In this document: positions 2,150 to 41,190 of the stretch, piece after piece | How positions within the stretch are numbered: the stretch's first letter is position 1 | Layout: every line of letters begins with the position of its first letter | From: Gammaproteobacteria bacterium | Lineage (GTDB): Bacteria; Pseudomonadota; Gammaproteobacteria; SZUA-140 | Direction of reading: 5' to 3' | DNA length: 64,000 bases | NCBI GenBank assembly: GCA_015488555.1 | Contig: WFNO01000066.1 | Coordinates: 1,842-65,841 of the forward strand | The notes under the pieces: model-generated | The model's input: the letters and a program-made list of their open reading frames with translations, nothing else | The model's database searches: none | What the model was told of the DNA's origin: nothing | Translations under genes and position numbers: made by a program

Positions 2150-2614
2150 TTACTCGATGATGAACAGAGGCTGGCCGTATTCCACCGGCTGGCCGTTCTC
2201 CACCAGGATCGCTGCCACCACGCCTTCCTTGTCAGACTCGATCTGGTTGAGCATCTTCATGGCCTCGATGATGCACAAGGTATCCCCCACCTTCACGTGC
2301 TGGCCCACTTCGACGAAGGGCTGGGCACCGGGCGCCGGCGCCCGATAGAAACTTCCCACCATGGGAGAGGTGATGACGTGACCTTTGGGCGGTTCCGCCT
2401 CCTCTTTCGTTCCCACCTCCTCCGCTTCCGGTTTGGCTTCCACTTCGGCCGGAACCGGCGCCGCCGGCGGCGGTGTCGCGATCACGGTCTGGGCCTGCGC
2501 CTGCGACGCATAGCGGCTGATGCGTACCGACTCCTCACCTTCATGGACCTCGATCTCCGCCAGATCCGACTCTTCCAGCAACTCGATGAGTTTCTTTATT
2601 TTTCGGATATCCAT
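2150..2614 (-). CDS. accB: Biotin carboxyl carrier protein of acetyl-CoA carboxylase
   Basis: 154-aa ORF with an Ala/Pro-rich linker and the C-terminal biotinyl motif EAMKM. Confidence 0.95.
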
Positions 2615-2686
2615 CTTGGTTCAGCTATTTCTGATTCTTCTCGTGACCGCGCTCCCCGCGAGCTTCCTCCAGCACATTCGGGTGAC

Positions 2687-3136
2687 TCACGCCCCCTCCC
2701 CGGCCAGACGCCGAATGGCCGCCTGCAGTGCCAGTTCGTACCCCTGGGCCCCCAAGCCGCAGATCACCCCCACCGCCAGGTCGGAGAAATACGACTGCCT
2801 GCGAAAGGGCTCGCGGGCATGGACGTTGGACAAATGGACCTCGATGAAGGGGATGGCGACCGCTGCCAGGGCATCGCGCATGGCGATACTGGTGTGGGTG
2901 AAAGCGGCAGGATTGAGGATGATGAAGGCGACGCCCTCCCGCCCGGCGGCCTGGATGCGTTCCACCAGTTCGTGTTCCGCGTTGCTCTGGAAGTCCAGCA
3001 CCTCGTGACCGGCGGCCGCCCCCAGCCGGCGCAGCTCCGCGGTGATGGCCCCCAAATCCCGCCGACCGTAGTGCTCGGGCTCACGCTGGCCCAACAGGTT
3101 GAGATTGGGCCCATTGATCACCAGGATTTTGGCCAC
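2687..3136 (-). CDS. aroQ: Type II 3-dehydroquinate dehydratase
   Basis: 149-aa ORF beginning (M)[22 protein letters not shown] start. The conserved aroQ-accB-accC order is present. Confidence 0.9.
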
Positions 3137-9081: not shown

Positions 9082-9414
9082 TCAGCCCCGGGACGGCTCT
9101 TCCTCGTCGATGGGCAAGGCGGCAAGGAGGTCGCTCACGTAGATCCAGCCCGCCAGCGGCTGGCCCGTGCGCGCGTGCTCGCGGATGAGGCATATGGCTT
9201 CGTCCACCCGCTCGTCCGCGCACACCAGCTCCAGCTTGACCTCGGTGATGACCTTCTCTCCCACCTCCACCGAATAACCCTGTTCCTTGCTGTCCAGGGC
9301 CTTGAGCATGCCCTTGACGTCGATGATGGACAGGTTCTGATAGCCGGCGTCCTTCAGGGCGCGGATGACGTCGGCGATGCGGTTGCGATGCACGAAGGCC
9401 TTGATCTCCTTCAT
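9082..9414 (-). CDS. P-II (GlnB-like) family protein associated with the czc efflux genes
   Basis: About 110 aa from the internal ATG (MKEIKAFVHRNR...), which overlaps the czcA stop. The longer version uses a GTG at 9444. It has a GlnB-like beta-alpha-beta pattern. Confidence 0.65.
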   Translation of the reverse strand: MKEIKAFVHRNRIADVIRALKDAGYQNLSIIDVKGMLKALDSKEQGYSVEVGEKVITEVKLELVCADERVDEAICLIREHARTGQPLAGWIYVSDLLAALPIDEEEPSRG

Positions 9415-12400
9415 GAGCGTTTCTCCTTGCGGGTTTCGATCCACTCGTAGATGACGGGCAAGAGGATCAGGGTCAACAGGGTGGAGGTGAAGAGCCCGCC
9501 CACCACCACGGAGGCCAGCGGGCGCTGGGTCTCGGCCCCCACGCCGCTGGACAGCAGCATGGGGATGAGGCCGAGGATGGCCACGCTGGCCGTCATCAAC
9601 ACCGGCCGCAGTCTGAGCTCGGCACCCTTGCGCACCGCCTCACTCACCGACAAACCCTTCTCCCGCAGCTCGTTGATGAAGCTGATGAGTACGATGCCGT
9701 TGAGCATGGCCACGCCGAAGACGGCGATGAAGCCGATGGCCGAGGGCACCGACAGGTACTGGCCGCTGATGTACAGGGACACCAGCCCGCCGATGGTGGC
9801 GAAGGGCACGTTGGCGATGATGAGCGTGGCGTATTTCACTGAATTGAAGGCCGTGTACAGCAGCACGAAGATGAAGAAGATGGTGAGCGGCACGATGATG
9901 GACAGGCGCTTCAGGGCGCGCTGCTGGTTCTCGAAGGCCCCGCCCCATTCGATCCAGTAGCCCGGCGGCAGCTCGATCTCTTGTTCGATTAGGGCATCGG
10001 CCTCCTTGACGAAACCGTCCACGTCGCGGCCGCGCACGTCCATCTGGATCACGGCATAGCGCTGCAACTGCTCGCGGCGGATGAAGGAATAGCCCTCCGC
10101 CACCTCCACCTCAGCCACCCGTTCCAGGGGGATGAGGGCGCCATCGGCGGTGCGCAGCGGAATCTTGCGAATAGCCTCCACGGAGGATTTGGAGGCATCG
10201 TCCAGGCGCGCCGTGATGTCGAAACGCCGCACGCCGTCCAGCAACGTGGTCACCGGCTCGTTGCCGATGCCGTTGCGCACCACGTCCAGCACCTCGTCGG
10301 CGTTCATGCCGTAACGGGCCAACTGCTCGCGGTTCACGCGGACGCGGATCTGGGGCTTGCCCACGTTGGCCTCCAGGGAGAGATCGGCCACCCCCGGTAC
10401 CCGGGCGATGACATCCTTGATCTTCTGGCTCAAGCGGTCCAGTTCCCCCAGATCCTCGCCGTAGAGCTTGGCGGCCAGGGTGGCGCGCACCCCGGAGATC
10501 AGCTCCTCCACCCGCATCTGGATGGGCTGGGTGAAGGCGATCACCGCCGTGGGCACCGTCTCTTCCAGGGTCTCGCGCATGGCGTCGGCGATCTCCTCGA
10601 TGGATCGGTTCCACGTCTCCTTGGGCGTGAGGCCGGTGTAGATCTCCATATAGTTGACGTCAGCGGTCTCACCCTTCTCGGCGCGGCCGATCATGGCGAT
10701 GGTGGTGGTCACCTCCGGAAACTCCCCCAGGGCTTGCGCGATCTTGTTGGAGATCTCGATGGACTCCTCCAGCGAGGTGGAAGGGATGGACGTGACCCGC
10801 CACATGATGGAACCTTCCTGGAGCTGGGGCATGAATTCCTTGCCCAGCAAGGGAAACAAGGCCAAACTGCCCGCCAGTAACAGACCCGCGGCGCTCACCA
10901 CCACCTTCTTGTGGTTCAAGGACCAGGCCAACACAGGCAGATAGCCACGCTTGATCCCGGCCACCAGCCAGGTGTCGCGTTCCGCCTTGGGCTTGAGCAC
11001 CAGGGCCGCCAGCACCGGGATGAGGGTGAGGGTGAGAATGAGCGAGCCGGCCATGGCGAAGCTGATGTTGAAGGCCATGGGCTTGAAGAGCTTGCCCTCC
11101 AGACCCTCGAGGGTGAACAAGGGCAAAAAGACGACGATGATGATGAGAATGGCAAAGGCGATGGGACTGGCCACTTCGCGCGCAGCGGTGAGCACCGCGG
11201 CGGTACGGTCCACTTTCTCGCCCCGCTCGCGCCACTCGGCCATGATGCGAAAGGCGTTCTCGGTCATCACCACGGCGCCGTCCACCATCATGCCGATGCC
11301 GATGGCGAGCCCCGCCAGCGACATCAGGTTGGCGGAGATACCGGCCTCTTCCATGAAGATGAAGGCGATGAGCATGGCCAAGGGCAGGGCGGCGATGACC
11401 ACGATGGCCGAGCGCAGCTCCCCCAGGAACAGGAACAGCACGATGGCCACCAGGATGGAGCCCTCCACCAGGGCCCTGACCGCGGTCTGCACCGCCTTCT
11501 CCACCAGGTCGGTGCGCTCGTAGACGGGATTGAGTTCCACCCCCTCGGGCAGGGCGTCGCGCACCACCTCCACCTTTTCCTTGACCGCATCCACCACGTT
11601 CTTGGCGTTGGTGCCGATGCGCGACAGGGCCATGCCCATCACCACTTCGCGGCCGTCACGGGTGACGGCGCCGAAGCGCAGGCCCGGTGCCTGGCGGATG
11701 GTGGCCACGTCGCGCAGGTACACGGGGGTGCCGTCCTGGACCTTGACCACGATGTTGCCGAGATCGGTCTCGTCCTGCACCAACCCCAGGCCACGCACCA
11801 GATACTGCTCGGGCCCCAGATCGATGTACTGGCCGCCCACCTGGCGGTTGTTGTTTTCCAGGACCGTGATGACATCGCGGAAGCTCAGATCGTACTTGAT
11901 GAGCTTGAGGGGTTCGATCACCACTTGGTACTGGCGTTCCTGCCCGCCCCAGGAGAGCACGTCGTCCACGCCCGGCGCAGTGCGCAGGATGAGGCGCACG
12001 GTCCAATCCTGCAGGGTGCGCAGATCCATGTCCGTGATGGCATCCTTGAGTTGCTCGTCGGCCCGCTCCAGGGTGTACCAGAACACCTGCCCCAGCCCAG
12101 AGGAATTGGGACCCATCTCCGGCGTGCCGTAGCCTTCGGGGATGCGGTCGGCCACCTCCAGCAGGCGTTCCATCACCAGGCGGCGCACGAAATAGATGTC
12201 CATGTCGTCCTCGAAGTACACCGACACGTAGGACAGCCCGAACAGACTCACGGAGCGGATCTCCTTGACCCCTTGCAGGCCAGCCATGCCGGACTCCACC
12301 GGGAAGGTGATGAGCTGTTCCACGTCCTCCGCCGCCAACCCCGGCGACTCTGTATAGATGTTGACCTGCACCGGCGTGACGTCGGGAAAGGCGTCGATGG

Positions 12401-15664: not shown

Positions 15665-16282
15665 TCATTTCGCCGTATGCATGAACGCCGCCAGCAGCAC
15701 CGCGGCATCCCGCAAGCGCGTGGCGAAGACCCGCGTGGGCTTGTCACCACCGACAGCGGCCTCGGCCCTGTTCACCAGATCAGCCACGCTCAAGCCCTCA
15801 TAGCCCTCGATGAAACCCTTGCCCACGGTGCCTTCGAATTCCGGAATGTATTTCTCGCTCAAGGCGGTGAGAGCCACTTTGGTGACCTTGCCTTCGGCAT
15901 CCAGGCCCACGCCCACCGCCAGATCGCCGTGGCGATAGCCGGCCTTGAGGATGATGGCGCCACCGGCGATCCGACCATCGCTGCGGTCCTTGGCCAAATA
16001 ATAGGTGTAGAGGGACTCGTCCAGATCCACGCCGTAGGTCCGTTCCGCCCACTCGGCGCCCTCGTCGCTGAGGCGTTGTTTGCGCTTGACGATCTTGAAA
16101 TTGCCCCCGGCCGGAAGCATGGCGCGCAGGGCTTCCTTTTGCTTGAGGAAATGCACCAGCGGCCCGCCATGGCCCTTGTGCGCCAGGGCTGGCGCTGCCC
16201 AGCCACCGGCCACCAGTAGGGCGGCCAGCAGAAAGACTACTCCTCGTGTATCGAACCGGAAACCTCGAATCATGCTGCTCAT
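15665..16282 (-). CDS. Periplasmic protein with an FMN-binding-like (FMN_bind) domain
   Basis: Internal Met (MSSMIRGFRFDTRGVVFLLAALLVAGGWAAPALA) gives a signal peptide. The core IILKAGYRHGDLAVGVGLDAEGKVTKVALT...EFEGTVGKGF fits the FMN_bind pattern. Confidence 0.55.
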   Translation of the reverse strand: MSSMIRGFRFDTRGVVFLLAALLVAGGWAAPALAHKGHGGPLVHFLKQKEALRAMLPAGGNFKIVKRKQRLSDEGAEWAERTYGVDLDESLYTYYLAKDRSDGRIAGGAIILKAGYRHGDLAVGVGLDAEGKVTKVALTALSEKYIPEFEGTVGKGFIEGYEGLSVADLVNRAEAAVGGDKPTRVFATRLRDAAVLLAAFMHTAK

Positions 16283-16385
16283 TTGCTGCCTCCTCGTTCG
16301 GGGTACGGCCGCCACTGTCCGGCAGGCGGCCGTGGTGTACGAAATGGCCGGCCGGGGAAGGGAGTTGCGCTCCCCTGCCCGCCGG

Positions 16386-17165
16386 TCAGGGCATGTCGCG
16401 GGCACGCACCCAAATGATCGCACCCACGTGGAGCGGATAGGCCTTGCCCTTGTGCTCCATGGTACGGCTCTGGTCCACCAGGGCGGAGAAGCCCCACCAG
16501 CCGGCACGGGGCATGGCATAGGTGAACACACCATTGGCATCCGCCTTGACCACCTGGGTGATGAAGGGATCGGCGGGCGCGCGGGCGCTGCCGTCCTGGT
16601 TGTAATACTCCACCACCACGCGGGCGAAGGGCACGGGTTTGCCATTCAGCTTGACCACGCCCTGGAAGACGTTGTTCGTCCACAGGCCATAGGGACGGGT
16701 GAGCGGTACGATCTCGGCCTCCAGGCCCAGCTCGCGATCCCAACCCTCTTCCAGGCCGAAGGTGTTCACCACCACCTTGGTGTACTGGACGAGGAAGATC
16801 TCCTCGGCCTCGTCCCAAAAGACCTCGGGCACCACGTAGAAGATGTGATCGCCCGGCTTGCGGAACTTGTAACGCAGCGTGTAGGCCGGCAACAACTCAC
16901 CCTGGCGGTCCCGCACCTGCACCGGCTGCAGGCGTGGCAGCAGGTCCTGGTCGCGGCCGGCCACCCACACGCCCACGCGCCGGGGCTTGGCCATGGGCAC
17001 GCCCAGGTCCTCGAAGGGATGGGTGAACCGGATCTCCAGGTCTACGGCGCGCCGCTCTTCATGGGTCACCACGTCGTCTGACGGGATGAGCAACTGGTAA
17101 TGGGCCATGGCCGGCGAGGATACGCCGGCCATGGCCCCCAACAGAATGGCGAGCACGCGCCGCAC
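16386..17165 (-). CDS. DUF4198-like periplasmic (transthyretin-like) protein
   Basis: The putative GTG start gives MRRVLAILLGAMAGVSSPAMA|HYQLLIPSDD. The HYQL start and beta-rich body are typical of DUF4198 proteins. The family assignment is from memory. Confidence 0.55.
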   Translation of the reverse strand: MRRVLAILLGAMAGVSSPAMAHYQLLIPSDDVVTHEERRAVDLEIRFTHPFEDLGVPMAKPRRVGVWVAGRDQDLLPRLQPVQVRDRQGELLPAYTLRYKFRKPGDHIFYVVPEVFWDEAEEIFLVQYTKVVVNTFGLEEGWDRELGLEAEIVPLTRPYGLWTNNVFQGVVKLNGKPVPFARVVVEYYNQDGSARAPADPFITQVVKADANGVFTYAMPRAGWWGFSALVDQSRTMEHKGKAYPLHVGAIIWVRARDMP

Positions 17166-17181
17166 CAGACCACCCCACCGC

Positions 17182-18264
17182 TCAGTCGAGGTGTTCGTGG
17201 GTAGGGCCAGCCTCGCCGCCACCCAGTGCATAGCTGATGCCCAGACTCCAGCGATATTTCTCGTCGTTGGATATACCGCCCAGGTTCTGATAGACGGGAT
17301 AGGAGAAGTTGCCATAGGCGACGATGCTGCGGTTGAGCTTGAAATTAATGCCTGGCGAGAAATAGACCACGTCACCGCCGCTGTTCTTCTTGAGTTCGCC
17401 ATCTTCATTGTCTTTCTTCGCAAAGATGCCGTTGAGTTCCACCACCGGCGTGATCCAGGCATGGTGATTGTAACTCAGGGCCACATCCGCCTGCCAGGAA
17501 TTGCCGCTGCGGAAATTGTTGGCACCGGGACCGTTGACGCGTAGTATCCAGTCGGCATCCAGGGCCAGCTTGTCCGTGAGGTGGCCGCTGTAGGCGATAC
17601 CAGTCTGGACCGTGAAGGCACCGCTGCCCGGCTGGTTGTGGGTACCCAGCACCTCGTCCTGGCCGGTATACCGGTTCTTGTCGGTCTTGTTGGTGAACTT
17701 GCCGGTGGGCATGAGCAACCCAAACAGCCCTGCCCATTGGTGATTGCCGTCGTTGTAGAAGCGATAGCGGGCCATGAGCAGGGTGTCCCCCCAGCCCGGC
17801 GACTCGTCCGTCTCCGAGATACAGATCGGATCCAGGTTGTCCAGAATCCCATCACCGTTAGTATCAAAACAGGCCATGGCCTGACCATCACCGTTGTCCT
17901 TGAAGCCCTGGAAATTGTTGTACTGGGTCATGATGGCCAGATCGATGTCCTCGGCCACCGGAATGCCGATCTGGATGAAATAGGCGTCCTCCCGGGAATG
18001 CTGGTGGACGTCCTCGCCGCGCGCCCGGAAGTCCACCATCTCCTGGTCCGAGAACAGCTCATAGCGGCGCGCATCCCAGCGCAGGCCGATGACCACGTCT
18101 TCCACGATGCCGGCACCCACCGCATTGATGCTGCCGGAACCACCGCCGCGAATGGATTCGCCATGCGCGAAGGCCGTATTGTGAACCAACAACAGTGAGG
18201 CCCCTCCCATGGCCAACAATGCCACTGCCTTGGACAGAGATTGCGAGTGTTTGGATTGCTTCAT
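17182..18264 (-). CDS. Secreted beta-rich protein, a putative outer-membrane channel or porin
   Basis: 360 aa with signal peptide ...VHNTAFA|HGE, SD AGGAGA and alternating hydrophobic beta-strand patterning (RYRWSLGISYAL). No identifiable family. Confidence 0.55.
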   Translation of the reverse strand: MKQSKHSQSLSKAVALLAMGGASLLLVHNTAFAHGESIRGGGSGSINAVGAGIVEDVVIGLRWDARRYELFSDQEMVDFRARGEDVHQHSREDAYFIQIGIPVAEDIDLAIMTQYNNFQGFKDNGDGQAMACFDTNGDGILDNLDPICISETDESPGWGDTLLMARYRFYNDGNHQWAGLFGLLMPTGKFTNKTDKNRYTGQDEVLGTHNQPGSGAFTVQTGIAYSGHLTDKLALDADWILRVNGPGANNFRSGNSWQADVALSYNHHAWITPVVELNGIFAKKDNEDGELKKNSGGDVVYFSPGINFKLNRSIVAYGNFSYPVYQNLGGISNDEKYRWSLGISYALGGGEAGPTHEHLD

Positions 18265-18370
18265 TTCGTTCTCCTAAGTCATTGGGTTAGTTTAAATGAC
18301 GTCGATGTATCGGACCGGAAAGCGCATCCCAGCACACTCCGTCGTAGATTCCCACAGTTTCATCTCATTC

Positions 18371-18390
18371 TTATTACGTAATAATTATTA
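18371..18390. promoter_or_regulatory. Overlapping AT-rich perfect palindromes (TTATTACGTAATAA and TAATAATTATTA). This is a candidate metalloregulator operator in the divergent promoter region.
   Basis: Both palindromes are exact and sit in a 434-bp GC-rich intergenic region between the secreted-protein gene and the His-rich gene. Approximate coordinates. Confidence 0.45.
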
Positions 18391-18698
18391 ATCATACCGC
18401 ATACCCATTGCACGCGCAAGACCCCGGGACCGTTTGGAACCGGCGCTGAAAACGGGCACGTGGCTTCGCCGTTATCGGCGGCAGTCTTGAAATCTTGCAT
18501 ATGGCAAATGGCCAACAGTCCCCGTGCTCGAGATGTTCCGGAAATCGAGATGCAATCGGAACACCCCGGTGTTAAAGTCGGCGGGCACGATGCCGAAACA
18601 GCGGTGGGCGGCGGCCCAGCGCCCGATCGCATCCTGGCCTGCCCTTTGCGTGGCATTCGTCCCCGTAAACAACAAACCAACCCTGAAGGAGAACGCGA

Positions 18699-18971
18699 AT
18701 GGAAGGTCCACACAAGCATAGCCATCAGCACGAGCACGAACATCGCCACGGCGAGCACGAACACCCCCACACCCATGCCGACGGCACCACCCACAGCCAT
18801 CCCCACGCCCATATCCACAGTCACACCCACGTGCACGAGCACGAACACCCCCACACTCACGCCGGGGGCAGCGACGACCACGATCACCAGCACAGTGAGG
18901 ACGAGCTGGCCGGGCACGACCACGATCACCCGGATCACGATCGCGAGAGTCACGAAGACCACAGCCACTGA
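18699..18971 (+). CDS. Histidine-rich metal-binding protein (about 35% His, Hpn-like)
   Basis: 90 aa, MEGPHKHSHQHEHEHRHGEHEHPHTHADG..., with an SD GAAGGAGA 7 nt upstream. No signal peptide. A rho-independent terminator follows. Confidence 0.7.
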   Translation: MEGPHKHSHQHEHEHRHGEHEHPHTHADGTTHSHPHAHIHSHTHVHEHEHPHTHAGGSDDHDHQHSEDELAGHDHDHPDHDRESHEDHSH

Positions 18972-19066
18972 AAACCGGCCGCCGTGAAGAAGGGATCCCG
19001 GTTCTGCTGACAAAAGTGTGCCAGGATTACGAAAATTTCTACTCGAAAAGCCGGTTTTTTCTCACA

Positions 19067-19094
19067 CGCCCCGCCTCACGCGGGGCGTTTTTTT
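19067..19094 (+). terminator. Rho-independent terminator after the His-rich gene
   Basis: Stem CGCCCCGC / GCGGGGCG with a CTCA loop, followed by seven T. Confidence 0.6.
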
Positions 19095-19136
19095 GGGTAT
19101 CATGGCGCCATCTCAAAGCTGACGGGAGCGCACATC

Positions 19137-19403
19137 ATGATGGAAATGGAACACGAAATGGGTGGTGGCATCTTCGACATGATGTGGATCTTCCCCATTT
19201 TGTTCTGGGTCCTCATCATCATCGGAGCCTTTTTCCTGGTCAAATGGCTGCGCCAGCCTCCCAGCAGTGAATTGTCCAGCAAATCGGCCGCCTCGCAGGC
19301 GGTAGAGAAAAGCGACGCCGCGGGCGAACCGCAAATACCGCCCCAGGGCGAGTTCAACGGCCCGCACAAGAGTAACGGCAGGAGCAGTGGAGAGGGACCG
19401 TGA
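19137..19403 (+). CDS. Small single-TM membrane protein with a Met/His-rich N-terminus (MMEMEHEMGGG)
   Basis: 88 aa with an SD GGGAG upstream and one hydrophobic helix WIFPILFWVLIIIGAFFLV. Its end overlaps the next gene's GTG start. Confidence 0.45.
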   Translation: MMEMEHEMGGGIFDMMWIFPILFWVLIIIGAFFLVKWLRQPPSSELSSKSAASQAVEKSDAAGEPQIPPQGEFNGPHKSNGRSSGEGP

Positions 19404-19768
19404 AAAAACGGGGTTGGTTCTACGGCGGCGTGGCCTTGATCCTGCTGGCCCTGACCGGGATCTTCACCCTGTCGGGCATGAACCGCCATCACGAAGGGAT
19501 GATGGGCGGCATGGGTGGGGAAGATCGTAACGACGCGCACTCCCTGGACCATCTACCGGCTGGTATGCGCCACGATCCTGCCGCCGACGTCTTCCAGGCC
19601 TCCTGTTCCGGCTGTCATGCGCCGCCGGATCCGCGCCGCTATTCGGCCGCGGAATGGCCCGCCGTGGTTGCCCGCATGCGCCAGCATATGGTGACGCAGG
19701 GCAGGCCCGTACCGCCCCCGGAGGTGCTGGGCACCGTGGTCGAGTTCCTCCAGCGACACGCCCGCTGA
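19400..19768 (+). CDS. Membrane-anchored monoheme c-type cytochrome-like protein with a Met/His-rich segment
   Basis: 122 aa from a GTG start. N-terminal TM helix, HHEGMMGGMGG region and a CSGCH (CxxCH) haem-binding motif. Confidence 0.5.
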   Translation: MKKRGWFYGGVALILLALTGIFTLSGMNRHHEGMMGGMGGEDRNDAHSLDHLPAGMRHDPAADVFQASCSGCHAPPDPRRYSAAEWPAVVARMRQHMVTQGRPVPPPEVLGTVVEFLQRHAR

Positions 19769-27390: not shown

Positions 27391-29829
27391 TCAACTCACC
27401 AGCTTCAGGGGAATGTACTCGCGCCGGCGCTGTGCATCCCGCACCTGCTCGGCCCAGGGATCCACCTGGGCGTGGCGCTGGGACTCCAGGAAGCGGGCAT
27501 GCAGGGCCCGCCGCCCCTCCGGATCCTCCACGATGCGCTGCTTGACATAACCCAACCCCACGCGCTCGATCCAGTGGGCGGTGCGCTCCAGGTAATGGGC
27601 CTCCTCGCGATAGAGCTGCAGGAAGGCGCCGCAGTATTCCTTCACCTCCTCCGCTGTATTCACCTTGCACAGCAGGTCGGTGGCCCGCACCTTGACGCCG
27701 CCGTTGCCACCCACGTGCAACTCCCAGCCGGACTCCACCGCCACCACGCCGAAGTCCTTGATGGTGGCCTCGGCACAATTGCGCGGGCAGCCGGACACTG
27801 CCATCTTGACCTTGTGCGGTGTCCACGATCCCCAGCACATCTTCTCCAGTTCGATGCCCATGGTTGTAGAGTCCTGGGTGCCGAAGCGGCACCATTCCGA
27901 TCCCACGCAGGTCTTCACCGTACGCAGGGCCTTGCCGTAGGCGTGGCCGGAAACGAAACCCGCCTCGTTGAGCGCGCGCCAGATGGCAGGCAGGTCCTCC
28001 TTCTTCACTCCCAGCAAATCGATGCGCTGGCCGCCCGTGATCTTCAGCGTGGGCACCTGGAAGCGCTCGGCCACATCGGCGATGGCACGCAACTCAGCAG
28101 GCGTGGTCACTCCGCCCCAGATGCGCGGCACCACGGAATAGGTCCCGTCCTTCTGGATGTTGGCGTGGACCCGCTCGTTGATGAAACGAGATTGCGGGTC
28201 GTCCACCACCTCGCCAGGCCAGGTGGAGAGCAGGTAATAGTTGAGCGCCGGCCGACACACGTGGCAGCCGTCGGGCGAACGCCACTCCATGTAGTCCATG
28301 ACCGCGTGGATGCTGGTGAGATGCTGCTGGCGGATCACCCGGCGCACCTCGTCGTGGGTGTGATCGGTACACTTGCACAGAGGCTTCTCGGCGGGGGTCT
28401 GGGAATAGTCGTTGCCCAGGGTATCCATGAGAATCTGCTCCACCAGCCCGGTGCAGGAACCGCAGGAAGAAGAGGCCTTGGTGTGAGCCCGCACGTCGTC
28501 CAGGGTGAACAGTCCCTTGTCGGTGATGGCCCGGACGATGTCCCCCTTGCAGACCCCGTTGCAGCCGCATACTTCCATGTCGTCGCTCAGGGCGCTGGCG
28601 GCGTTCTGTCCGCCATGACCGGAATCCCCGAGATGGGCCTGGCCGAACAGCAAGTGGTCACGAATGTCGGCGATATTGGTGCCGTCGCGCATGAGCTGGA
28701 AATACCAGCTGCCGTCCATGGTGTCGCCGTAGAGCACGGCCCCACGAATGCGGTCGTCCTTGAGCACCAGCTTCTTGTAGATGCCCTGGCTGTCGTCGCG
28801 CAGGACAATCTCCTCGCTGTCGGCATCGCCATGGAAATCGCCGGCGGAGAACAGGTCGATGCCCGTGACCTTGAGCTTGGTGGAGGTCACCGTCCCCTCG
28901 TAGCGGGCATAACCCAGGCGGGCCAGGTGGTTGGCGCACACCCGCGCCATCTCGAACAACGGCGCCACCAAGCCATAGGTTCGGCCGCGGTGCTGCACGC
29001 ACTCACCCACGGCATAGATCCTGGGATCGAAGGTCTGCAGGGTATCGTTGACCACCACGCCACGCTCGCAATAGAGACCGGCGGCACGGGCCAGCTCGAT
29101 GTTGGGCCGGATGCCCACCGCCATCACCACGAGGTCCGCGGGAATCTCGGTGCCGTCCTTGAAGCGCACCGCGCGCACCTCTTCCTCCCCCAAAATGGCC
29201 TCAGTCTCGGTTTCCATGAGAAAAGTGAGTCCCTTCTCCTCCAGGGCCCGCTTGAGCAGGGCACCTGCGGGTTTGTCCAGCTGGCGCTCCATGAGGGTGT
29301 CCATAAGGTGTACTACGGTCACCGTCATGCCGCGTTCCTTGAGACCGTTGGCGGCTTCCAACCCCAACAGTCCGCCGCCGATCACCACCGCATGCCTGCC
29401 ACACCGGCTGGCCTCCAGCATGGCGTTGACGTCGTGGATGTCGCGGAAGGTGATCACGCCCTCCAGGTCTCTACCCGGCACCGGCAGAATCATGGGATTG
29501 GAACCGGTGGCCAAGAGCAGACGGTCGTACGGTGCCTCGGTACCATCCTCGGCCACCACCCGGCGCCGGCGGCGGTCGATGGCCACCACCTTCTTGCCCG
29601 CGTGCAGCGTGATCCCGCGGGATGCGTACCAATCTAAGTCGTTGAGCATGATGTCGTCCAGGGTCTTCTCGCCCGCGAGCACCGGTGAGAGCAAGATGCG
29701 GTTGTAGTTGCCGAAGGGCTCGGCACCGAAGACAGTGATGTCATACAGATCCGGCGCCAGCTTGAGCAACTCCTCCAAGGTGCGCACACCCGCCATCCCG
29801 TTACCGATCATGACCAGCCTTTCTTTCAT
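27391..29829 (-). CDS. nirB: NAD(P)H-dependent assimilatory nitrite reductase large subunit NirB
   Basis: About 812 aa from ATG MKERLVMIGNGMAG. The ORF track began 4 codons earlier at a GTG. Contains FAD/NAD, BFD-like Fe-S and sirohaem domains. Confidence 0.9.
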   Translation of the reverse strand: MKERLVMIGNGMAGVRTLEELLKLAPDLYDITVFGAEPFGNYNRILLSPVLAGEKTLDDIMLNDLDWYASRGITLHAGKKVVAIDRRRRRVVAEDGTEAPYDRLLLATGSNPMILPVPGRDLEGVITFRDIHDVNAMLEASRCGRHAVVIGGGLLGLEAANGLKERGMTVTVVHLMDTLMERQLDKPAGALLKRALEEKGLTFLMETETEAILGEEEVRAVRFKDGTEIPADLVVMAVGIRPNIELARAAGLYCERGVVVNDTLQTFDPRIYAVGECVQHRGRTYGLVAPLFEMARVCANHLARLGYARYEGTVTSTKLKVTGIDLFSAGDFHGDADSEEIVLRDDSQGIYKKLVLKDDRIRGAVLYGDTMDGSWYFQLMRDGTNIADIRDHLLFGQAHLGDSGHGGQNAASALSDDMEVCGCNGVCKGDIVRAITDKGLFTLDDVRAHTKASSSCGSCTGLVEQILMDTLGNDYSQTPAEKPLCKCTDHTHDEVRRVIRQQHLTSIHAVMDYMEWRSPDGCHVCRPALNYYLLSTWPGEVVDDPQSRFINERVHANIQKDGTYSVVPRIWGGVTTPAELRAIADVAERFQVPTLKITGGQRIDLLGVKKEDLPAIWRALNEAGFVSGHAYGKALRTVKTCVGSEWCRFGTQDSTTMGIELEKMCWGSWTPHKVKMAVSGCPRNCAEATIKDFGVVAVESGWELHVGGNGGVKVRATDLLCKVNTAEEVKEYCGAFLQLYREEAHYLERTAHWIERVGLGYVKQRIVEDPEGRRALHARFLESQRHAQVDPWAEQVRDAQRRREYIPLKLVS

Positions 29830-29877
29830 GAATGCTTCCACTCCGCAGCTTTCGTTGTTCCACTGTCTCCAGAGTTA

Positions 29878-29893: not shown

Positions 29894-29904
29894 ATCAAAA
29901 AATT

Positions 29905-29924
29905 AAACAAATATCTATTTGTTT
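29905..29924. promoter_or_regulatory. 20-bp palindrome AAACAAATA-TC-TATTTGTTT upstream of the nirB promoter. Candidate operator or bending site.
   Basis: Perfect 9-bp arms. It overlaps the IHF-like AT-rich tract in the nirB/narK divergent region. Confidence 0.4.
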
Positions 29925-30223
29925 AGCATGAACTTTCTCAATTCTCTCGGAGACACCCCGCGCTTCGCCCCCGCCAAGCTGCATCAGATTGGTGCGCCTT
30001 GGCGCCCTGCCATGAGCTGCTTTGACTGGATGAGATCAATCCCACTCGCTTCGCCCCTGAATTCGAGCCGGCCGCCGTACGATTCTTGCAGAAACCATAC
30101 TCCCGCCTCGAGACTCGGTGGGAGTATCACTACATCTCTGCCAGCATCCCACACTGCGCACTCCTGGTGCACCCTGACAACGCGAAATCTAAAAAACCCC
30201 TGCACATCAATATCTTAATAACT

Positions 30224-41007: not shown

Positions 41008-41190
41008 TGATGTTTTCTATTTAAAATCAACTTGTTATTTATACTTGGACCATTGAGAGCACTTTTTGGGTGCAACTGCGCCCTCGGCAACCCGTGTGAT
41101 GCGCAATTTTGGTGCGCATTACGGCTGATGCATCCGCCGGCCTGCTGGTGTAAGATTCCCCCGAACCCATTCTTCGGTGTACGAAACCTC

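Follow-up and report, generated by a model that had tools for sequence, protein, structure and literature searches.

The tract and its setting

The stretch analysed, 64,000 nucleotides of contig WFNO01000066.1 and referred to below as the window, comes from a contig of hydrothermal-vent gammaproteobacterial metagenome-assembled genomes (MAGs) and has a GC content of ~0.64. An AT-rich tract was found in a 434-bp intergenic region bounded by the ATG of a minus-strand gene for an outer-membrane protein (OMP) at 18264 and the ATG of a divergent plus-strand gene for a small His-rich protein at 18699. This tract, considered here as a candidate operator for the regulator NikR, had been singled out in an initial annotation as two exact, overlapping, AT-rich palindromes between divergent gene starts, in the control region of metal-related genes, a description that holds up in each of its parts.

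The plus strand from 18360 to 18409 reads tcatctcatt cTTATTACGTAATAATTATTAATCATACCGCATACccatt. Palindrome 1, TTATTACGTAATAA (18371-18384), and palindrome 2, TAATAATTATTA (18379-18390), are exact reverse-complement matches that have 6 nt in common. The longest AT-only run of the window (14 nt, 18379-18392) is located here, and the segment 18367-18396 is the joint most AT-rich 30-mer (26/30). Perfect palindromes of at least 12 bp were not unusual as such, 34 in the window vs 25.6 +/- 5.1 in dinucleotide-type shuffles. Those with at least 80% AT numbered two, both at this site, compared with a shuffle mean of 0.07, and two or more were present in just 0.5% of the shuffles. The AT-rich tract is non-random, beyond chance. 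A search of Rfam over 18150-19200 at permissive thresholds gave only two sub-threshold small RNA matches, both outside the site, so that no riboswitch or leader was indicated.

The minus-strand string that starts at 18264 consists of genes for the OMP, a DUF4198 protein, a 206-residue protein and a 110-residue protein of no family (p110), followed by czcCBA, a P-II-like gene and a P1B-type ATPase. The first gene of the operon (17182-18264) encodes a 360-residue beta-barrel of the Phenol_MetA_deg family (PF13557, E=3e-10), the second (16386-17231; gene call in the related locus L037) a periplasmic protein (PF10670, E=6e-56), and the third (15665-16285) a secreted protein, p206, with no Pfam or NCBIfam match. 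On the other side of the tract, ~300 bp from the candidate operator, the divergent gene (18699-18971, plus strand) encodes the 90-residue His-rich protein and may share the control region and be co-regulated. At other loci, a His-rich gene was found within the OMP operon, with NikR-type boxes upstream, or else in divergent orientation to such boxes. The His-rich protein is ~40% histidine, with HxH repeats, like the Hpn-type nickel storage proteins. It is overlapped by antisense open reading frames that sometimes appear as wrong-strand gene calls in relatives (L044, 9308-9589). NCBIfam had no name for the OMP, the DUF4198 protein, p206, p110 or the His-rich protein.

A conserved footprint over a predicted promoter

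Relatives of the OMP were collected from 36 encoding loci, and more close relatives were obtained by exact-protein look-up. Intergenic alignments were made between the window and relatives with 68-83% protein identity; the eight orthologous loci referred to below are the window and seven relatives. A single conserved block, TTGAAA-N12-TATGCG-GTATGAT-N13-GT(C/A)ATA(C/A), was present in the ~440-bp intergenic region, that is, a -35-like TTGAAA plus TATGCGGTATGAT-[variable AT-rich]-TATTAYGTMATAM. In the operon direction the window reads TTGCGC-N12-TATGCG GTATGAT TAATAATTATTAC GTAATAA. L001 and L044 have TTGAAA-N12-TATGCG GTATGAT, then TTTTAATTATTAT and TTTTGATTATTAC, respectively, then GTAATAA, while L046 and L032 have TTGAAA-N12-TATGCG GTATGAT, then TTTTAAATATTAT and TAATACATATTAT, respectively, then GTCATAC. 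The remaining sites are TTGAAT-N12-TATGCG GTATGAT TATTAATTATTAT GTCATAC in L002, TTGAAA-N12-TATGCG ATATGAT CTTTAGTTATTAT GTCATAC in L047 and TTGCGC-N12-TATGCG TTATGAT TATTGATTAATAC GTCATAA in L049.

The left half-site was GTATGAT in six of the eight loci (ATATGAT in L047, TTATGAT in L049), and the right half-site was GTCATAC (L002, L032, L046, L047), GTCATAA (L049), GTAATAA (L001, L044) or, at the additional locus L074, GTAATAC. TATGCG was invariant in all eight and in L074. The information content of the eight-site profile was high in both flanks and lowest in the spacer, and this bipartite conservation fits a two-half-site operator. Palindrome 1 was exact only in the window and L044, had one mismatch in L001 and was lost in L002, L032, L046, L047 and L049, while palindrome 2 was found in the window only. 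On these alignments both palindromes are lineage-specific and not the conserved unit.

The TTGAAA-17 nt-TATGAT arrangement of the orthologues is, by its sequence, a good sigma-70-type promoter, and a promoter scan tool reported TTGAAT/17/TATGAT in L002 and TTGAAA/17/TATGAT in L046. The predicted -35 of the window, TTGCGC (18414-18419, minus strand), is located 17 nt upstream of the predicted -10, TATGAT (18391-18396, minus strand), and is weak in this genome; six orthologues have TTGAAA or TTGAAT at this position, and L049 has TTGCGC. At the threshold of the tool, a scan of the window region for sigma-70 promoters and terminators gave no matches. The window promoter scored 8/12, below that threshold, because its -35 is weaker, and it was recognised through the orthologues. 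Transcription is predicted to start at ~18384 on the minus strand, in the AT-rich spacer, and the operator is predicted to overlap the core promoter of the OMP operon.

The candidate NikR operator, box B (18371-18397, minus strand), is a 27-bp inverted repeat with an AT-rich spacer, GTATGAT-N13-GTAATAA, which reads TTATTAC gtaataattatta ATCATAC on the plus strand. Its left half-site, h1 (GTATGAT, 18391-18397, minus strand), is an exact consensus half-site and holds the predicted -10. The right half-site, h3 (GTAATAA, 18371-18377, minus strand), matched ATCATAC at 4/7 positions, and its reverse complement, TTATTAC, matched the GTATTAC-type NikR half-site at 6/7. The form GTaTTAC is the NikR half-site given for D. 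desulfuricans hydAB in Table 4 of PMC545781. A weaker, putatively functional box A (18378-18404, minus strand; GTATGCG-N13-TTATTAC, 27 bp) is interleaved with box B at a 7-bp offset and scored 11/14 in a generalised box scan. The plus-strand layout of the four heptamers h0-h3 is [TTATTAC][GTAATAA]ttatta[ATCATAC][CGCATAC]. A position weight matrix (PWM) derived from the eight orthologous sites showed secondary peaks 7 bp to either side, as well as on the opposite strand. The palindromes are by-products of this arrangement: palindrome 1 consists of two abutting, oppositely oriented half-site copies (h3 and h2), and palindrome 2 is spacer, situated mostly in the variable AT-rich part and spanning the predicted transcription start.

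The enterobacterial NikR consensus, GTATGAT-[N13/14]-ATCATAC, with its 27-28 bp architecture, was described in 2004 (PMC545781). Out of 14 positions, the N13 form matched 11, 11, 11, 13, 12, 11, 13 and 13 in the eight loci; the window scored 11/14, and 13/14 was reached by L002, L032 and L046, which have GTATGAT-N13-GTCATAC. Composition-matched shuffles (n = 4000) scored 7.8 on average, with a 95th percentile of 9 and a maximum of 12. When the half-sites were generalised to admit GTATTAC, the window site scored 13/14. The heptamer spacing was N13 in the window and in all eight loci, and the N14 register scored at the null. The right half-site GTCATAC of L002, L032, L046 and L047 matched ATCATAC at 6/7 positions.

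Related loci and the downstream cassette

In delta-proteobacteria and other bacteria, NikR boxes have the form GTGTTAC-[N13/14]-GTAACAC (Rodionov et al. 2004; PMC545781). Paired 27-bp boxes of this delta type, GTRNCAC-N13-GTRNCAC, N5, GTGYTAC-N13-GTGYTAC, with heptamer offsets of 0, 20, 32 and 52, surround a TTGACA promoter in at least 14 of the more distant orthologous cassettes, as in L017 (GTAGCAC-N13-GTAACAC, 5 nt, GTGTTAC...). In the orthologous cassettes of other vent MAGs (L005-L018, L030 and L036; for example L017, 273-330, and L015, 197-255) the double NikR-type box was highly regular and surrounds a TTGACA...TACGAT promoter; its two boxes are mutually inverted, making the whole 59 bp one large palindrome. 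Tandem hybrid boxes occurred in L028 (GTATTAC-N13-GTCATAC) and L019, and these link the GTATGA-type to the delta-type half-sites.

The nikR gene adjoins the cassette in six loci (L011, L030, L013, L022, L033 and L027), as found by tblastn with the verified sequence of E. coli NikR as the query. All six products have RHH_1 and NikR_C domains by Pfam, with conserved nickel ligands, and in L027 the boxes flank nikR and precede the OMP gene. A NikR profile search returned ~8000 homologues, of which two loci, from other vent MAGs, were examined; at these gammaproteobacterial nikR loci, boxes precede DUF4198 and nikMQO-like genes.

The scan for further copies of the element that the initial annotation had proposed was carried out in the window and in metagenomes of the Joint Genome Institute (JGI). 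A strict-pattern scan of the latter gave 25 matches, most of them chance occurrences in low-GC gut contigs, and recovered three orthologues and L074 only, with no wider regulon in these data. L074 has a hybrid box, GTATGAT-N13-GTAATAC, within TATGCGGTATGAT-N13-GTAATAC (3044-3076), 361 bp upstream of a divergent His-rich gene (2420-2683, minus strand), which hints that the element may also serve the His-rich gene. The OMP operon is absent from L074, with a HIT-family gene in its place, and the -35 is lost.

The controlled unit is most likely, from gene order, the three-gene, here perhaps four-gene, cassette. Close relatives have a ~450 bp gap or an opposite-strand gene between the 206-residue gene and czcC, and ~25 more distant loci have the OMP-DUF4198-p206 trio without an adjacent czc cluster, both of which point to the cassette and not the efflux genes as the unit. 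The p206 gene was syntenic with the OMP and DUF4198 genes in ~30 loci.

The signal-peptide junctions AFA|HGES, AMA|HYQL and ALA|HKGH place a histidine at the mature N-terminus of all three proteins, a feature conserved across ~30 loci. The OMP had 114 homologues and a predicted mature N-terminus of HGESIRGGG; in an alignment of 36 sequences A|HGESIRGGG was invariant, as were H34, G35, E36 and many other His, Glu and Asp residues. The DUF4198 protein has a predicted mature N-terminus of HYQLLIPSD, and A|H[YF]Q was kept in all orthologues. For p206, predicted to begin with HKGHGG, the N-terminal His was present in every orthologue, as A|HKGH in all but three (HAGH or HEGH). The three N-terminal histidines suggest a shared N-terminal-His metal site or a metal relay, as judged from the alignments.

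According to a 2025 study (PMC12537917), DUF4198 proteins mostly have an N-terminal His after signal-peptide cleavage, their genes neighbour those of NikR_C regulators and TonB receptors, and in one member the N-terminal His mediates the binding of Ni2+ (Kd 18 nM). The second operon gene belongs to the same family as the Ni-binding IsDUF4198 and keeps the N-terminal His of its nickel site. A sequence search of the PDB with the window DUF4198 protein returned marginal matches to Zcp, a DUF4198 protein of Neisseria, only (E ~0.2), uninformative on metal specificity; Zcp differs in being Zur-regulated and in using three internal His residues (PMC12663993). Overall, the cassette fits a nickel-handling envelope system, nickel being the presumed metal.

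One of the closest known counterparts is the operator of E. coli PnikABCDE, GTATGA-N16-TCATAC (cited in PMC7055735), which a re-reading of NC_000913.3 placed 37 bp upstream of nikA. The window site has an exact GTATGA on one side, and TCATAC is exact in L002, L032, L046 and L047. Like the E. coli operator, the site is an inverted repeat with half-sites about two helical turns apart, has an AT-rich spacer and is located a few tens to ~120 bp upstream of the first ATG; its predicted overlap with the core promoter of a probable nickel-acquisition operon would be a further parallel. Unlike it, the right half-site here is degenerate (TAATAA), an extra heptamer pair occurs at a 7-bp offset, the spacer of 15 nt (vs 16) is within the published N13/14 heptamer range, the target is OMP-DUF4198-p206 and not the NikABCDE importer, and nikR is not adjacent.

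The delta-type boxes share the 27-bp architecture and stand upstream of orthologous cassettes, beside nikR in relatives, and the window TTATTAC is one base off the GTaTTAC of D. desulfuricans hydAB. However, the left half-site of the window is of the enterobacterial type (GTATGAT), and the two boxes of the relatives are usually in tandem at a 31-32 bp offset, whereas the second box here is interleaved at 7 bp. The operators of H. pylori NikR are of an AT-rich, TATWATT-N11-AATWATA type. As described in PMC7055735 and in references of PMC11247825, H. pylori NikR exerts nickel-responsive repression on outer-membrane uptake and His-rich storage proteins. The H. pylori regulon (fecA3, frpB4, hpn, hpn-like) resembles the present locus in combining OMP genes with small His-rich genes, but its receptors are TonB-dependent and the barrel here is a small one of the Phenol_MetA_deg type.

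Candidate regulators of the element

The tract probably forms the core of an operator of the NikR type, situated on the promoter of what is probably an operon for nickel capture, a reading that rests on the footprint, the consensus match, the promoter overlap, the regulon context, the linkage to nikR and the gene content. The OMP-DUF4198-p206 operon probably provides a route for the capture or uptake of nickel through the envelope. On the model of E. coli PnikABCDE, a Ni-loaded NikR tetramer, encoded elsewhere, would bind both half-sites through its two ribbon-helix-helix domains in cells with sufficient nickel. The half-sites, two helical turns apart, would span -10 to ~+13, and bound NikR would exclude RNA polymerase and switch the cassette off. 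When nickel is scarce the repressor would leave and the operon would be transcribed; the divergent His-rich gene might follow the same response. We infer all four elements of this scheme, namely the presence of NikR in this genome, its binding here, repression, and nickel as the metal.

If the assignment is true, a regulator (NikR) and a metal (nickel) would be known for a three-gene envelope cassette that is conserved and has lacked an annotation until now. The cassette is widely distributed among the Gammaproteobacteria and Nitrospirota of hydrothermal vents, which require nickel for hydrogenases and other enzymes. The range of NikR operators would gain an E. coli-like half-site with a 15-nt spacer together with hybrid half-sites, N-terminal-His DUF4198 proteins would gain independent genomic support as NikR-linked nickel binders, and an annotation otherwise filed as a Fur or Zur box would be corrected. 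The regulation itself is of an expected, ordinary type, in an unstudied deep-sea bacterium.

Several observations weigh against a NikR operator: the right half-site of the window is degenerate, with only 4/7 of ATCATAC in GTAATAA; the hexamer spacer is 15 nt vs 16 in E. coli; the element has extra conserved sequence (TATGCG, TATTAY) unaccounted for by a simple two-half-site model; and the NikR score of the window, 11/14, equals its score for the B. subtilis-type Zur 7-1-7. When the 64-kb window was scored with the PWM, no other site emerged, the next best score being -2.7 vs 61.4 for the site itself. nikR was absent from the window, and the ~10 kb that follow its right end contained pil, penicillin-binding protein and tricarboxylic acid cycle genes only; the NikR homologue search did not lead to a nikR of this genome either. 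The nikR genes of relatives accompany delta-type, not GTATGA-type, boxes. At L023, L024 and L026 the related site is GTATGA-N8-TCATAC, with a spacing unfit for a NikR tetramer. In L026 this site is shared with a divergent ZnuA/ABC-3/ABC importer without a His-rich loop, which leaves room for another regulator or another metal. Finally, Zcp of Neisseria is a Zur-regulated zinc binder (PMC12663993).

The initial annotation had proposed an operator for a metal regulator encoded elsewhere, specifically a Fur-family box. The first part stands, the best reading being a metal-sensing repressor, and neither NikR nor Fur/Zur homologues were found in the window; the family assignment is not supported. 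A Fur-family box, with one or two Zur, Fur or Nur dimers on the 7-1-7-like ACGTAAT-A-ATTATTA and zinc or iron acquisition repressed when the cell is metal-replete, is quite improbable. It gains from the Zcp precedent, from the Fe response of other DUF4198 members (PMC12663993), from the L026 site, which faces a ZnuA-type transporter, and from the 11/14 match of the window to TCGTAATnATTACGA, the Zur type of B. subtilis and Geobacter (null 95th percentile 9), but this match dropped to 8-10/14 in the orthologues. The other consensi were at background, with 12/19 for Fur19 (null 95th percentile 12), 10/14 for both Fur 7-1-7 and PerR (null 95th percentile 10) and 12/22 for the gamma-type Zur (null 13), and the Neisseria-type Zur consensus did no better than composition-matched shuffles. 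The Zur consensus listed in PMC545781 is TAAATCGTAATnATTACGATTTA. The central TAATnATTA core was not conserved, being changed in L044, L046, L047, L049 and L032 (altered forms TGATTATTA, TAAATATTA, TAGTTATTA, TGATTAATA and ACATATTAT), and the 7-1-7 core coincides with the centre of the element, where information content and conservation are lowest, with the conserved bases, GTATGAT and GTMATAM, outside it. No Fur or Zur homologue was detected by tblastn in the window or in any of the ~36 OMP-related loci with manually entered E. coli Fur and Zur query sequences, vs nikR at six loci, and the N-terminal His of the window DUF4198 protein is typical of the Ni-binding type. A purely structural role is the least credible of all, namely that the tract is an AT-rich core promoter, initiation region or UP-like element, or a hairpin of the 5' untranslated region formed by palindrome 1, with no dedicated regulator. 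The -10 is indeed inside the left conserved block, AT-rich DNA melts easily at a transcription start, and palindrome 1 could give the mRNA a 5'-terminal hairpin of 7 bp. However, ~12 conserved bases (TATTAYGTMATAM) are situated downstream of the predicted start, where a promoter does not need them, the block is the sole conserved sequence in 440 bp, and no Rfam family matches the region. The RNA hairpin was rejected, as palindrome 1 was lost in 5/8 loci and there were no compensatory changes.

Another metal-responsive regulator of the four-part repeat [TATGCG]G[GTATGA]-N8-[TATTAC]G[TAATAA], with the resemblance to NikR coincidental or convergent, is unlikely, though it deserves more weight than either of the preceding explanations. 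An example would be a dimer-of-dimers protein acting on the GTATGA-N8-TCATAC core of L023, L024 and L026. Such a regulator would account for the conservation of TATGCG and TATTAY beyond the NikR half-sites, the 7-bp self-similarity of the PWM, the exact 20-bp palindrome GTATGA-N8-TCATAC with symmetric TTAAGC/GCTTAA in these three loci (L023, 741-760; L024, 5846-5865; L026, 5820-5846; upstream of distant OMP genes) and the finding of no nikR at any locus with GTATGA-type sites. On the other hand, chance is a very unlikely source of a 13/14 match to the NikR consensus with its published spacing, and the hybrid boxes of L028 and L019 join GTATGA and delta-type half-sites in the same 27-bp tandem architecture. 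No ArsR (HTH_20), MerR or other DNA-binding gene was conserved in the neighbourhood according to the Pfam gene tables, and the site shared with an importer in L026 points to the logic of a co-repressor, not derepression by excess metal. TGA-N8-TCA is the core spacing of ArsR/SmtB 12-2-12 operators. An operator of that type gained no support, given the lack of an HTH_20/ArsR gene in the conserved neighbourhood and the importer that the related site of L026 faces.

A more elaborate form of the NikR operator is possible, if rather doubtful: the conserved 34-bp element might be a compound operator, [GTATGCG][GTATGAT]-N6-[TTATTAC][GTAATAA], read by two NikR tetramers or by an undescribed regulator and controlling an unrecognised, TonB-independent nickel route through the three secreted proteins with N-terminal histidines. 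The four-heptamer layout has a symmetric form in L023 and L024. The element may consist of two 27-bp boxes interleaved at a 7-bp offset, with two NikR tetramers on different helix faces, and the OMP barrel, the DUF4198 protein and the 206-residue protein may relay the metal through the cell envelope in vent Gammaproteobacteria.

On the other side of the intergenic region, GGTGTTA (~18575), which precedes the His-rich gene, was rejected as a possible delta-type half-site: no partner half-site accompanies it, and L001 and L044 do not show it consistently. Beyond the His-rich gene, a plus-strand gene (19400-19768) encodes a 122-residue protein that has one CxxCH motif (CSGCH) and weakly resembles c-type cytochrome subunits; it is conserved beside the His-rich gene together with an 88-residue membrane protein. 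The P-II-like small protein (9082-9444, minus strand), an unusual companion of a metal-efflux system, is encoded between czcA and the gene for the P1B-type ATPase and was kept there in L037, L044, L047 and L024. Two further AT-rich intergenic tracts of the window (29895-29925 and 41014-41045, 26/30 AT) did not resemble the operator; the former is directly upstream of a nirB-like nitrite reductase gene (27391-29841, minus strand). In L079 (6001-9676) and L082 (6001-9225), a nikR-HI_1622_C-CbiM-CbiQ-ABC cluster was found back to back with a czcCBA operon, making nickel uptake and resistance-nodulation-division efflux genes repeated neighbours in vent Gammaproteobacteria.

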